NCBI GenBank assembly: GCA_964016885.1
Contig: OZ024741.1
Location: 128,464,001 to 128,528,000 of the forward strand
DNA from: Eledone cirrhosa
Lineage: Eukaryota
Length of the DNA stretch: 64,000 bases
Direction of reading: 5' to 3'
Shown here: positions 1,105-43,203 of the stretch, piece by piece
Layout of the letters: each line of letters begins with the position of its first letter
How positions within the stretch are numbered: position 1 is the first letter of the stretch
Notes under the pieces: model-generated
Databases searched by the model: none
Told to the model about the DNA's origin: nothing
The model's input: the letters and a program-made list of their open reading frames with translations, nothing else
Position numbers and translations under genes: made by a program

Positions 1105-1775
1105 ATAAATGTAAGTATGTATGTACGTATACGTATATACATATATGTATACAGACGTACAGTAGTATGTATATATATATACATACATGTACACATATAT
1201 ATGCACGTATCGGTTTACCGAACATTTATTATAATGCTCGGTTTGTTTGTTTGTAAACAAACAAACAGCCCGGATTACGCCGTACTAAGAGTGAGAAATG
1301 AAATTTCGTTTCATTCTATTCCATTTGATCGTTTTCGGTGCGCCCAGCCGACTGAACTCACTCGATATGCAAATTAGGCTTGCTCAGCCGTTAATATGCA
1401 TAAGGAAAGTATATACTTTCAGACGTTCAACCATCTGGCAGGAAGGTATACGATGCTGACGATAGCTAATAAGCTTGAAACTAGTACATCGTTCCTGTGT
1501 CAGTGTTGAACAAAAAGGTGACGTGGTTGCCTAAACACTGTACGGCGTAATTCGGGATGTTTGTTTGTTTACAAACAAACAAACCGAGCATTATAATAAA
1601 TGTTCGGTAAACCGATACGTGCATATATATATGTGTACATGTATGTATATATATACATACTACTGTACGTCTGTATACATATATGTATGTACGTATACGT
1701 ACATACATACTTACATTTAAGTAAGTGCCGTACTAAGAGTGAGAAATGAAATTTCATTTCATTCTATTCCATTTA
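1105..1775 (+). mobile_element. Retrozyme-like HHR element, copy A (448-nt unit plus terminal overlap, plus inverted arm 1107-1284)
   Basis: gccgtactaagagtgagaaatgaaatttc at 1279 and 1727. Central HHR. TA flanks. Non-coding. Confidence 0.85.
1425..1511 (+). ncRNA. Type I hammerhead ribozyme with extended stem I
   Basis: cgatg CTGACGA T AGCT aata AGCT T GAAA CTAG TA catcg. Stem I extends via ctggcaggaa/ttcctgtgtcag and gttcaac/gttgaac around a ggtata bulge. Predicted cleavage after GUA (1486). Confidence 0.85.
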
Positions 1776-2342
1776 TATATATATATATATATATATATAT
1801 ATATATATATATATAGAGAGAGAGAGAGAGAGAGAGAGAGAGAGAGAGAGAGAGAGGGGGGTAAGAGAGAGAGATATGTGTGTGTGAGTCGGTAACTATG
1901 AACGCTGAACTATAAAACAAAACAGCATAAGAAAGGGTTAATTATTTCTTAGGTATATTCTTTCACTAGGTTCACCGGTTGACCTTGTTCGTAAGAAGAT
2001 CTTATTCAGACGTTGTTGACCTTGTTTAATGTTTTATGTTTGGTGGAGTGTATAATGGACGAATATCAGTTCATCTTCCTTGGCACAGATTCCCTCCCTT
2101 TGTGATTGTTGTCGTTATACAGAATATATTTTTATTGTATATCATTTTTTTTTTCACATAAATTATATAAATAATCTGTCATTCTACTTGTATGTTTGTA
2201 AGTACGTACGTATATATGTGTGCACTAAACATATATGTCATAAATACAGAGACACACACATACATATATATGTATATGTATGTATATATCTATATCTATA
2301 TATATATGTAAAAAGGTAATATATATATAAATATATATATAT

Positions 2343-2807
2343 CGGAAAAAATGAAACGATATTTCATTTCCCACTCTTAGTACGGCTGTTACTTAAATAT
2401 AAGTATGTACACGTACATACATATATGTATACCGACGCACAGCAGTATGTATATATATATATATATATATATACATACATGCACACATATATATATGCAC
2501 GTATGGATTCACCGAACATTTATTATAATGCTCGGTGTGTTTGTAAACAAACATCCCGTATTAAGCCGTAGTGTCTAGCAGCCACCGTTGCTCGTTTGTT
2601 CAACACTGACAAAGGAACGCTGTACTAGTTTCAAGCTTGTTAGCTATCGTCAGCAACGTATACCTTCCTGCCAGATTGTTGAACGTATATACTTACCTTA
2701 TGGATATTAACGGCTGAGTAGCCCAATTTGCATATCGAGTGGGTTAATCGGCCGGGTGCCCGAAAACGATAAACGGAAAAAATGAAACGATATTTCATTT
2801 CCCACTT
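2343..2807 (-). mobile_element. Retrozyme-like HHR element, copy B (431-nt unit)
   Basis: cggaaaaaatgaaacgatatttcatttcccact at 2343 and 2774. HHR at 2618-2658 (-): cgttg CTGACGA TAGCT aaca AGCTT GAAA CTAG TA cagcg. Confidence 0.85.
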
Positions 2808-2889
2808 CATATCCCTCACTTCCTATGTATGCATATATATATATATATATATATATATATATATATATATATATATATATATATATATA

Positions 2890-3225
2890 TATAGACAGTT
2901 TTATAGATAAATAGATTTGACATACCGTTCAACATCGACTTGTATTTGAAAAAGTTGATTTTTCAAATACAAGTCGATGTTGAACGGTATGTCAAATCTA
3001 TTTATCTATAAAACTGTCTATATTGTATTTTGTCTGAGGAAGGCATAACATATTGTTAATATGATATCCCTGAAATATATATAATGAAATAAATATGGTT
3101 TTATAAATATAGTTTCCATTTATTTAATATCGTAAATATACTCCAAATACTTGTTGAGTGCTTTTATATCAGTTATAAATATTTACTAGTTGTAACCCAA
3201 CAATTTAAATATAACTTTCCATATA
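2890..3225 (+). mobile_element. Fold-back PLE-end insertion with HHR
   Basis: Palindrome centred ~2955. tattttgt CTGAGGA AGG..CATATT gtt AATATG..CCT GAAA TATATATA atgaaata (3026-3091). Near-identical to 43903-44390. Confidence 0.8.
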
Positions 3226-4084
3226 CATATATATATATATATATATGGGGGGGGGGGAGATGCAAATTCCTGACCGCGGCGCCAAGAGGTTTCTCTAAAC
3301 CCATTCTGCATCTCCCCATGTATTGAGTACTCACAAGCTTAGTGGTCTCCCCACCCTCTGCACAACAGTCTCTCTCTCTCTCTCTCTCTCTCTCTCTCTC
3401 TCTCTCTCTCTCTCTCTCTCTCTCTCTCTCTCTCTCTCTCTCTCTCTCTCTCATATGTATATACATATATATATATATATGTAAGTTATTCCGGGTTGAA
3501 TCGGAGGTAATCACAGTAAGTAAGGTACTCAATACATAGCAGAATATAAAAGTTTTAATATAGATGAGATTCTACAGGACTAGAACTGTTTCATTCTTTA
3601 GAAATCATCAGGAATTTCTTATATATATAAGAGAGAGAGAGAGAGAGAGAGAGAGAGAGAGAGAGAGAGAGTATTTTGTGCAAATGGCGGGGACACCACT
3701 AAGCATGGGAGTGCTCAATATATATACGTATATATATATATATACACACATATATAAATATATATATACCCCCCACACACACATATATACATATATATAT
3801 TCATAGTTATATACATAACTAGAACCATACATATGTATCTATCTATTTGTATATACATACAGTACATCTATCTATCTCAATCATAGTAATAAATTTAAAG
3901 GGGAACAGAAGAAAAGACAGAGAAAAAGAGTGAGAGAGGTCAGATAGCAGAATAAACAAACAACTGTATACATATTATGTCATTCTGCCTGTGCCATCTT
4001 TTATCTATATATATCCATCTGTCTTCACTATATAATTCTCCGTCGTCCTCTCCATGATACACACACACACACATATATATATAT

Positions 4085-41262: not shown

Positions 41263-41798
41263 CGGCAGTATCGGTAAAACGTTAGACAACATGATTTACA
41301 GCTTAGAGTTTCAGCCCTTTACATTCTGAGTTCAAATTGCTTTTCATCCTTACGGGGTCGATAAAATAAAGTACCAGTCACGCACTGGTTCGGTTTCATC
41401 GCCTTCCCCCTTCCCCCAAAATTGCTGGCCTTGTGCCTATATAAGAAACCATTATTATTATTACCTCCCTGTATGATCTGAGTTCAAATCCAGCCAAGGT
41501 TAACTTTGCCTTTCATCCTTCCGGGGTCGATAGAATAAAGTACCAGTAATGCATTGGGTAATTGCTGGCCTTGTGCCAAAAGTAGAAACAATTATTATTA
41601 TTATCGGTAGAGTGTCGGACAACATGCTTTGCAGCACAGAGTTACAGCTCTTTACAGTCAAATCCCGCCAAGGATAGCTTTGCCTTTCATCCTTACGGTG
41701 TCGATAAAATAAAGTACCAGTAATGCGCTGGAGTCGATTTAATCGACTTTCACCTCCCCACAAATTTGTTTGGTTTTGTACCTAAATCAGAAACCATT
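41263..41798 (+). mobile_element. Three tandem SINEs, dominant family
   Basis: Central domain repeated at ~41340, ~41510 and ~41685. Confidence 0.8.
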
Positions 41799-42409
41799 TT
41801 CTAGACTCCCACTGTTTTTATTTGGTATCAATTAAAAAAATAACTCGATTTCCTAATGGAAATTAGTAAATGAACGTAACACACCATGAATTCATTATTT
41901 ATACAGTCGAGTGTGTTGGGTTCGGCATAATCGGTTTCGCATTGGACAATATACTTTGTTTCATTTGTTATGACTCATTATGTTCTGAGTTCAATTCCCA
42001 CCGAGGTCAACTTTGCTTTTCATCCTTCCATGGATCGTTAAAATAAAGTACCAGTAAAGTACTGGACTCCTCCATATGATCCACTTAGTGGTAAGTTTTT
42101 GTTTGGACGAGTAGGTCCCTTTTAACGCGCGTGTGTGTACGTATGATACACTGAGGTTAATTCTGAGGAAGTAAGAGAAAGAAAGAAAGAGAGTGTGTGT
42201 GTGTGTGTGTGTGTGTGTGTGTGTGTGTGTGTGTGTGTGTGTGTGTGTGTGTGTGTGTGTGTGTGTGCGCGCGCGCGTGTACGCAAGTGAATGTGTTTGT
42301 GACTATATATATATATATAGTCACAAACATTCACTTGCGCAGATTCACACACAAATATATATTATGTGTGTGTATCTGCGCAAGTGAATGTGTTTGTGAA
42401 TATATATAT

Positions 42410-42543
42410 AATTGTTTCTACTTTTGGTATTACTGGTACTTTATTTTATCGACCTCGTAAGGATGAAAGGCAAAGTTAACCTCGGCGGGATTTGAACTCA
42501 GAATGCGTCAAAGCATGGCATCCGACCCTGCCGATACTGCCAT
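42410..42543 (-). mobile_element. SINE, dominant family
   Basis: Reverse-complement central domain and B box. Confidence 0.75.
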
Positions 42544-42566
42544 TCCTTGTGAATATATATATATAA

Positions 42567-43203
42567 GGATCGATCGACTTTCGTCAAATCGGACCGAGTA
42601 ACTCCAGGTAGAAGGAGCAACGTAAACAAACATCCCGAATTAAGCCGTACAGTGTTTAGCAACCATCATTGCCCTTTTGTTCAATACTGACAAAGGAACG
42701 ATGTACTAGTTTCAAGCTTATTAGCTATCGTCAGCACAGTATACCTTCCTGACAGATGATTGAACGTCTGAAAGTATATACTTTCCTTATGCATATTAAC
42801 GGCTGAGCAGTCTAATTTGCATATCGAGTGAGTTAATCGGCCGGGCGCACCGACAACGATAAATGGAAAAAATGAAACAAAATTTCATTTCTCACTCTTA
42901 GTACGGCTGTTACTTAAATATAAGTATGTATACGTACATACATATATGTATACAGACGTACAGTAGTATGTATATATATACATACATGCACACATATATA
43001 TATGTACGTATGGATTTACCGAACCTTTATTATAATGCTCAGTTTGTTTGTAAACAAACATCCCGAATTAAGCCGTACAGTGTTTAGCAACCATCGTTGC
43101 CCTTTTGTTCGGTAAATCCATACGTACATATATATATGTGTGCATGTATGTATATATACTACTGTACGTCTGTATACATATATTTATGTACGTATATATA
43201 CTT
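42567..43203 (-). mobile_element. Retrozyme-like HHR element, copy E (428-nt unit, third permutation, plus inverted arm 43107-43203)
   Basis: gtaaacaaacatcccgaattaagccgtacag at 42622 and 43050. HHR at ~42699-42740 (-). Confidence 0.85.

Follow-up and report, generated by a model that had tools for sequence, protein, structure and literature searches.

We describe a family of short, non-coding repeats in the genome of Eledone cirrhosa, each unit of which contains a predicted type I hammerhead ribozyme, and whose insertion was very probably carried out by machinery of the Penelope-like element (PLE) type. The sequences suggest that the family probably spreads as a self-cut, ligated, monomeric RNA circle copied by a Penelope-like reverse transcriptase (RT)/endonuclease. 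On balance, the insertions appear to record rolling-circle reverse transcription, with both nicked strands of a TA target priming at two fixed sites of the unit, for up to 10 or more rounds and with a helper that may have lost its own hammerhead. Copying of a monomeric circle is favoured because several young insertions repeat one private monomer in both arms. If true, this would be direct evidence for a retrozyme life cycle that has so far been a hypothesis, and would provide a defined substrate pair for its rebuilding in vitro. It bears on how animal retrozymes re-enter the genome and on the role of the hammerhead in Penelope-type mobility. The family supplies, in one genome, thousands of sharp-ended insertions, concatemers of very recent origin and a candidate helper that is itself young and intact, and together these make a circular versus a linear template testable.

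The window (64,000 nucleotides; contig OZ024741.1, positions 128,464,001 to 128,528,000) contains five homologous non-coding copies within TA tracts, as a preliminary description had reported, with a unique core that is 84–97% identical (Table 1). Unit positions are numbered u1–u448 after the 448-nt unit of copy A (1279–1726). The hammerhead core, CUGANGA...GAAA-CUA-GUA, lies inside all five copies, confirming that the predicted cleavage site is internal, and copies A, D and E have an inverted arm, in agreement with the three such copies counted earlier. Four copies had been described as one unit plus an overlap of 30–70 nt. This holds for copies A, B and E; the period of copy C, which reflects an internal deletion, is not the 396 nt given previously, and its repeat is longer than that range. 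The overlap was also thought to fall at three different phases of the unit. Instead, copies A (followed by a TA tract), B and D terminate at site 2 and copy C at site 1, its 5′ end lying in the TA-like tract of the unit, while the end of copy E is a junction with a SINE, which we read from its sequence as tRNA-derived; 42567–42621 therefore falls outside the unit, and 11 of 11 other loci were SINE copies without the unit. The sense arm of copy D, from u90 to site 2, is shorter than one unit and has no terminal direct repeat. The arms of copy A differ at 2 of 85 core sites, and those of copy D at 20 of 79, representing two subfamilies.

Table 1. Features of the window (positions from the first letter of the window; cleavage sites are predicted)
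Feature	Position	Strand	Description
Copy A, inverted arm	1106..1285	-	u262–441; outer end at site 1
Copy A, sense arm	1279..1774	+	448-nt unit + 48-nt direct repeat; 3′ end at site 2
Predicted type I hammerhead, copy A	1424..1512	+	core 1456–1486; predicted cut after 1486 (u208)
Copy B	2343..2806	-	431-nt unit + 33-nt identical repeat; core 2623–2653; predicted cut after 2623 (-); 3′ end at site 2
Candidate helper, PLE family F1	13705..18823	+	young Neptune/Nematis-type element (by motif); TA flanks; inverted arm with 42-nt tail 13705–14175; ORF1 5′-truncated; ORF2 15127–17481 (RT, CX4CX2C linker, GIY-YIG)
Copy C	18899..19376	+	399-nt period + 82-nt repeat; core 19158–19188; predicted cut after 19188
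Copy D	25126..25728	+	inverted arm 25126–25301 (site 1); sense arm 25306–25728; core 25395–25425; predicted cut after 25425
SINE piece	42567..42621	-	3′ part of putatively tRNA-derived SINE, joined to copy E at u288
Copy E	42622..43208	-	sense arm 43110 to 42622, 428-nt period + 61-nt repeat; core 42704–42734; predicted cut after 42704 (-); inverted arm 43106–43208 (site 1)
F1 stump	44426..44862		two-armed; tail at one end only

The predicted hammerhead of copy A has an extended helix I, a U.U at the base of helix II, a 2-bp palindromic helix III and GUA. Judged against the accessible text of PMC4209133, the architecture comprises a 6-bp proximal helix I with covariation, a 4-bp helix II and the 2-bp palindromic helix III. 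The helix I pair u175–u211 was A-U in 30, U.G in 29, G.U in 24 and C-G in one of 87 loci. In a sister family, helices I and II differ in sequence yet are fully paired, and both helices covary within and between the two families. We base the ribozyme call on the motif and this covariation, since Rfam gave no matches in the window at the gathering threshold and the 74-nt ribozyme folded alone reached z values of only −1.1 to −1.7. The activity of the monomer may be weak, because a U.U replaces the conserved G10.1–C11.1 pair and the loop of helix III is 2 nt long.

Exact matches to a 34-nt hammerhead core numbered 23,085 in this genome and 0 in the reversed control, which excludes a chance origin of the copies. 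The unit is closed, non-coding and low in GC, with a period of 420–516 nt and a strongly self-paired predicted fold as a whole (z = −8.0). It occurs as anything from a single unit to arrays of approximately 50 units, and at least two cores (inverted arms counted) were present at 31 of 55 census loci. The sister family is collinear and 68% identical, and the two together hold approximately 40,000 ribozyme cores. Literature searches turned up no description of this family, and on sequence grounds it is likely to be a non-LTR retrozyme.

Insertion ends were mapped in a census of 80 segments from 55 loci, picked solely by the ribozyme core. RNA-sense 3′ ends fell at site 1 (u410–446) in 39 segments, at site 2 (u34–52) in 33 and elsewhere in 8, with none at the cut. 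The two sites are fixed, internal and approximately 58 nt apart, and account for 72 of the 80 ends. A TA run lies within 30 nt of 62 of these 72, and the site 1 ends are fuzzy because a TA-like tract adjoins that site. Ends had been proposed to be freely permuted around the unit, with fixed ends named as the observation that would speak against it; the 3′ ends are fixed, which rules out free circular permutation, while the 5′ ends spread, so that half of this opposing pattern is what we found. Two-armed, head-to-head insertions paired site 1 with site 2 in 36 of 45 cases; 9 had another end and none used the same site twice. The pairing recurred in all 6 of a further set and in 3 of 5 sister-family insertions (2 had other ends), and one of 8 further two-armed loci (L252) showed an apparent site 2 + site 2 pair, with its left end outside TA. 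One site at each outer end is the Penelope 'tail' signature, and both 5′ truncation and a head-to-head inverted arm are found in the family; with the TA targets, this bears out the earlier suggestion of PLE-type mobilisation. Arms of one insertion share a source, since their median divergence is 3.1% within a locus versus 10.3% between loci (32 pairs). This similarity rules out that insertions generally combine two unrelated RNAs; copy D is the exception.

The view that the RT travels slightly more than once around its template did not survive the census. One unit plus 20–90 nt was seen in only 12 of 80 segments, and the stop rate in this range (0.0040 per nt) compares with 0.0028 and 0.0039 in the flanking ranges, which rules out a preference for products that slightly overrun one unit. 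That four of the five window copies belong to this class has, by our own arithmetic, a chance of approximately 0.002 at a 15% rate, and we ascribe the excess to selection of the window and to mild stop excesses. At u14–40, 11 stops of 5′ ends were counted versus 5.4 expected (P = 0.02 without correction for 12 bins). A further excess, in part a mapping artefact, lay in the TA-like tract (14 versus 3.9). An arm stopped within 50 nt of the other arm's start, a twin-priming geometry, in 42% of cases versus 29% expected (P = 0.07). Shrinkage of old arrays to about one unit was rejected, as divergence and length were unlinked in the 55 loci (rho = 0.05, P = 0.69).

The template is longer than one unit, as first suggested, and the composition of arrays gives a circular one better support than the earlier description could. 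In the array L273, 10 of 11 full units are letter-identical through both arms, microsatellite included; one marker base is present in all 8 full units of L274, 3 of 3 units of L277 are identical, and the 7 full units of L245 carry one SNP. The haplotypes of L245 and L274 occupy both arms and were found in no other array. Elsewhere the L245 marker appears at just 5 isolated positions, never with the complete haplotype, and none of the 6 other carriers of the L274 marker is a source array. A search for the source monomers of both found none, which we count against a circle, although a single assembly can lack the source. Monomer-impure arrays, namely A-B-A-B patterns in L086 and L244, alternating units in L099 and L061, mosaics in a 31-mer of the sister family and a period of 3 in L249, also count against it, as does the small number of fixed private variants (21, some of them alignment artefacts, versus 246 in single units). 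Derived changes shared in L086 and L244 indicate DNA-level duplication there. Two further markers were rejected as private, that of L074 marking a sublineage of 205 matches and that of L067 occurring in 12 loci; a variant private in the sample is therefore not private genome-wide.

These patterns would fit the following route. Copies with at least two ribozymes would be transcribed, and adjacent hammerheads, joined by base pairing of their palindromic helix III, would release a monomer for closure into a circle by a host ligase. The mapped ends suggest that a PLE protein would then bind hairpins located between the two sites, nick (TA)n on both strands and prime reverse transcription internally, from one strand at site 1 and from the other at site 2. 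The RT would circle the template with a roughly constant stop rate, so that products would range from 0.1 to over 10 units, and arrays would be altered later by DNA-level duplication and conversion, of which the arrays carry the pattern.

A PLE could also have inserted copies of a linear RNA that reads through a tandem array and stays uncut; pure arrays would then be young master arrays or the result of DNA expansion after insertion, and the ribozyme a passenger or an agent of another step. We consider this unlikely, but it has several findings in its favour. Linear templates could come from the arrays of 30–50 units present in this genome, which counts against a circle; L275 and L276 carry an identical exact unit, so that either could have templated the other; and higher-order and mosaic arrays would be accommodated. 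A PLE protein cuts both strands of AT-rich DNA and begins reverse transcription at two internal, tail-defining sites (PMC11167929), which supports PLE-type insertion of our family. In the same in vitro work ribozyme cleavage is dispensable and uncut RNA is the main substrate, which weighs against a circle. Of 9 predicted Xenopus retrozymes, 8 did not cleave, which counts against an active ribozyme. On the other side stand the haplotypes that fill both arms of L245 and L274, the microsatellite length that is constant across L273 but drifts (482–512) within the older array L279, and the covariation of helices I and II. Far less probable is a template of cut linear monomers, with the RT switching, at each 5′ end, to the 3′ end of a further monomer. 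Monomer-pure arrays would likewise be expected, and copy D shows template switching, as the SINE chimera of copy E possibly does; but only 1 of 78 5′ ends lay near the cut versus 2.0 expected, with 117 crossings of the cut counted, in a census whose anchoring pattern favoured intact cut-site junctions, a selection from which extra array units are free. Junctions across the cut were also clean, 90 of 95 being equal to the commonest of their arm.

Least probable, and largely refuted, is that the unit is merely the 5′-truncated pLTR of a coding PLE. PLEs do have a tail, inverted arms and TA targets, and most of 20 tail-anchored loci are short stumps. However, units abut without an LTR/PBS/PPT body or other intervening sequence, u448 being joined directly to u1 (3,092 adjacent ribozyme pairs at a spacing of 407–437 nt alone), the sister family retains the whole closed unit, RT/EN sequence adjoined a copy at 0 of 114 loci, and no common 5′ flank was found among 52 loci, in keeping with the earlier description of a retrozyme-like family. 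The unit formed the 3′ end of 0 of 30 GIY-YIG loci (approximately six families, from 10,595 GIY-YIG candidates), and BLAST against these 3′ regions found only one unrelated nested copy. The proposal that the PLE in the window is the helper stands in part, and we regard family F1 as a possible candidate, though one less likely than not to be the helper. Its clade was assigned by motif following the accessible text of PMC8557442, not by tree. F1 resembles the repeat family in two-ended architecture (site 1 and site 2 at opposite outer ends in 7 of 7 insertions) and TA target, but BLAST similarity to the unit is absent, and neither a canonical hammerhead core nor CUGANGA occurs in the 4,726-nt F1 unit. 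Site 1 of F1 and site 2 of the unit resemble each other over 12 nt, a likeness not conserved in the sister family.

EN+ PLE insertions, in the accessible parts of PMC8557442, PMC3846280 and PMC11167929, likewise have two RT start sites, a one-ended tail, a head-to-head 5′-truncated arm, AT-rich or (TA)n targets and partial tandems. Unlike them, the present family has no ORF, a tail of approximately 58 nt rather than 30–40, a canonical rather than minimal hammerhead, and concatemers that exceed 10 units. MRC1 and other non-autonomous Chlamys elements are similarly multicopy, head-to-tail and moved by PLE enzymes; as far as the accessible text of PMC8557442 goes, these elements and their helper have 3′ sequence in common, and hammerheads are missing from most Chlamys, whereas our family carries a hammerhead and gave no BLAST match to the sampled PLE families. 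Vertebrate retrozymes also comprise tandem hammerhead units alongside PLEs and dispersed monomers, and their range of 51–972 nt includes our unit (Li, Clavereau and Pollet 2026, 10.64898/2026.07.22.740005). That survey of 35 species, none a mollusc, tied retrozymes to pLTRs by similarity and proposed local DNA amplification, leaving the mechanism open; here, no parent pLTR was found among the sampled PLEs, and the link to PLEs is the insertion signature. RT copying of circles by PLEs was put forward as a hypothesis by Cervera and de la Pena (2020, PMC7229834). The metazoan non-LTR retrozymes in the accessible text of that paper share with our family a non-coding, low-GC tandem unit, one type I hammerhead, a strongly self-paired fold and a range from monomers to long arrays. 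Our unit, at 420–515 nt, lies at or above their 150–450 nt and is described here from genomic sequence; the accessible results and discussion contain no account of insertion ends, TA targeting, a tail or inverted arms such as we mapped. The axolotl HHR_Amex2 of the same text also has a U.U at the base of helix II.

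We recovered five retrozyme-like copies (A to E) at the positions of the preliminary description, with 84-97% identity over their unique core, and numbered them in ribozyme sense on a reference unit taken from copy A. Every copy had the sequences CUGANGA, GAAA and GUA, together with a helix II of 4 bp resting on a U.U mismatch and a palindromic helix III of 2 bp; the ribozyme cut is predicted at u208. This motif matched the canonical type I layout in the accessible text of PMC4209133, and the available part of PMC7229834 has the same U.U mismatch in axolotl HHR_Amex2. An Rfam search of the window returned 0 matches to the ribozyme, which in isolation folded no better than shuffled sequences. 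The ribozyme call is supported by covariation in helix I, where the pair left free by the search pattern was A-U, U.G, G.U or C-G in 84 of 87 loci, and by a sister family whose helices differ in sequence and are fully paired (G-C at the helix II base, GUU at the cut). About ten further hammerhead-like cores were seen in other repeat families of the window, several within palindromic or two-armed stumps.

Coordinates of the features (window positions unless marked; G000, genome assembly searched; C1, contig in G000; L numbers, individual loci)
Feature	Position	Description
Copy A	1106-1774	inverted arm u441-262, then u1-448, then u1-48
Reference unit	1279-1726	u1-u448
Copy B	2343-2806	431-nt unit + 33 nt
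Copy C	18899-19376	399-nt period + 82 nt
Copy D	25126-25728	no repeat; shorter than one unit
Copy E	42622-43208	428-nt period + 61 nt
tRNA-like SINE	42567-42621; L102-L112	
PLE F1	13705-18823; L143, L144	RT, GIY-YIG, DKG, CX4CX2C linker
Sister family	G000:C1:5738327-5752443 (L233, L234); L235-L242	466-nt unit
Array L244	G000:C1:49584287-49588086	10 units, A-B-A-B
Further hammerhead-like cores	1032-1040 and 3611; 3034, 44002, 44200; 4285; 20742, 22941; 24840; 28606, 29247; 30524, 32143; 45534; 54779; 59258	
SINE-like tandem dimers	10686-11078; 37485-37879	periods 197 and 211 nt
Short ORFs	19928-20251; 49456-49905; 51639-52715	

In the 3.0-Gb assembly, a 34-nt core gave 23,085 exact matches and a second, 26-nt motif close to the 3' end gave 31,314 (control 0 for each), numbers that count units and not insertions. 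Units met head to tail without a spacer, with 3,092 neighbouring ribozyme pairs in the 407-437 nt spacing class alone and about 50 units in the largest arrays. Reverse transcriptase (RT) or endonuclease sequence adjoined a copy in none of 114 loci, and the 52 free 5' flanks had no common sequence, bar one within-locus pair. The sister family was collinear, with 68% identity across the best 248-nt match, and retained a closed unit. On the loci sampled, the family is therefore an independent non-coding lineage and not the broken tail of a Penelope-like element (PLE).

Insertion ends were scored in a census of 55 loci, which together contain the 100 core matches listed first for contig C1 and were selected blind to ends. 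Among its 80 core-bearing segments, the 3' end lay at site 1 (u410-446, about u438) in 39, at site 2 (u34-52) in 33 and elsewhere in 8; 0 of the 80 ended at the ribozyme cut. TA adjoined 62 of the 72 site 1 or site 2 ends. Site 2 was sharp, whereas a TA-like tract within the unit itself made site 1 fuzzy; 5' ends were spread. Segments were shorter than one unit (29), one to two units (40) or two or more units long (11), and one unit plus 20-90 nt accounted for 12 of 80, without a spike in stop rate there. The ends had earlier been read as circularly permuted, in three phases, through reverse transcription slightly more than once around a circular or tandem multimeric RNA. Because 3' ends are fixed at two sites in 72/80 segments, no once-round spike occurs and the supposed third phase, copy E, is actually a fusion to the 3' end of a SINE, both the permutation and the once-around claims fail. 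A template switch may account for the fusion, a hint that SINE and unit are moved by one RT. This tRNA-like SINE meets TA with its 3' hairpin end in most loci. Loci picked by the 3' motif only (n = 20) were mostly 46-350-nt stumps, and a young sublineage (205 matches) was multimer-rich, with at least five units in 8 of its 20 first-listed loci versus 5 of the 55 census loci.

We then compared the outer ends of 45 head-to-head pairs from the census, 28 BLAST-top loci and the five window copies (one duplicated block appearing twice). Site 1 was combined with site 2 in 36 pairs, 9 had another end, and none of the 45 had the same site at both ends. Additional two-armed loci showed the site 1 and site 2 combination in 6/6 of one set and 6/8 of a second; of the remaining two in the second set, one had a different end and the other was an apparent site 2 + site 2 pair (L252). 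The sister family had its 3' ends at the same two sites, about 70 nt apart, and one of its insertions combined an array of 31 units with an inverted arm. A tail on a single end, known from PLEs in the accessible text of PMC8557442 and PMC3846280, is therefore also present in insertions of the retrozyme unit; in PLEs it has been explained by cleavage of both strands of the target and RT starting at two internal sites (PMC11167929). The two arms of an insertion come from one source, since their median divergence was 3.1% versus 10.3% across loci (32 pairs). Copy D is the clear exception, its arms, 25% apart, deriving from two subfamilies within one site 1 + site 2 insertion, which suggests occasional use of two RNAs.

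The PLE in the window (family F1) obeyed the same end rule, with a 42-nt tail, in 7/7 two-ended insertions, and likewise targeted TA. Its DKG and CX4CX2C linker mark it as a putative Neptune or Nematis type, by the motif criteria in the available part of PMC8557442. Its protein was 98-100% identical in all 150 scored matches, many with an open 784-codon frame. No similarity was found between PLE F1 and the unit, and 30 loci held about six endonuclease families; we propose PLE F1 only tentatively as the helper. The canonical core CUGANGA was absent from the 4,726-nt unit of this young, two-ORF element, although PLEs with a C-terminal endonuclease are described as generally carrying such cores. 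The few named relatives of its protein come from records of symbiont genomes of marine invertebrates and are probably host DNA within those assemblies.

The template is fairly likely to be an RNA circle rather than an uncut multimer, as judged on arrays chosen for length, which do not give a genome-wide rate. The 514-nt full units of L273 were letter-identical in 10 of 11, across both arms and microsatellite included; L277 held 3 identical units, the 7 full units of L245 had one SNP, and one marker was common to all 8 full units of L274. In L279, an older array, unit length drifted from 482 to 512 nt. The L245 marker recurred in 5 single places, none with the whole haplotype, and that of L274 in 6 other loci, all of different haplotypes, where it filled all 5 units of the sole long array among them. 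A linear monomer cut at the ribozyme is highly improbable as template, because 5' stops in the cut region (u200-220) were not in excess (1/78, two segments of a duplicated block being removed, versus 2.0 expected) and junction scars were absent from the cut.

An uncut multimer RNA from a tandem array, which we consider unlikely, has in its favour the long arrays that exist as potential masters and an exact unit common to L275 and L276. A monomer circle is opposed by the alternation of two unit types in L086, L244, L099 and L061 and by the sister 31-mer, a mosaic; in addition, no source monomer was found for L245 or L274, and private variants were 21 fixed versus 246 single-unit. Alternation would be expected from dimer circles or DNA duplication, and shared derived changes show DNA-level duplication in L086 and L244. 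The ends of L244 lay at site 2 and site 1, as expected of a regular insertion, and in L249, an array of some 50 units, there were blocks with period 3; both are higher-order repeats arising from the retrozyme.

On the features tested the family is a metazoan non-LTR retrozyme, with a predicted ribozyme and a predicted RNA circle. Searches of literature outside most subscription papers and Repbase turned up neither this family, nor a cephalopod retrozyme, nor a retrozyme described with PLE end signatures, and the supplement of PMC7229834, outside the comparison, may list further taxa. The accessible text of that paper puts forward the route from circle to tandem cDNA as a hypothesis, and that of 10.64898/2026.07.22.740005 connects retrozymes with pLTRs without settling the mechanism. 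The evidence from this family makes that mechanism testable. Elsewhere in the window, an abundant SINE-like repeat occurred as tandem dimers. The short ORFs presumably resemble C-terminal fragments of LINE reverse transcriptases.
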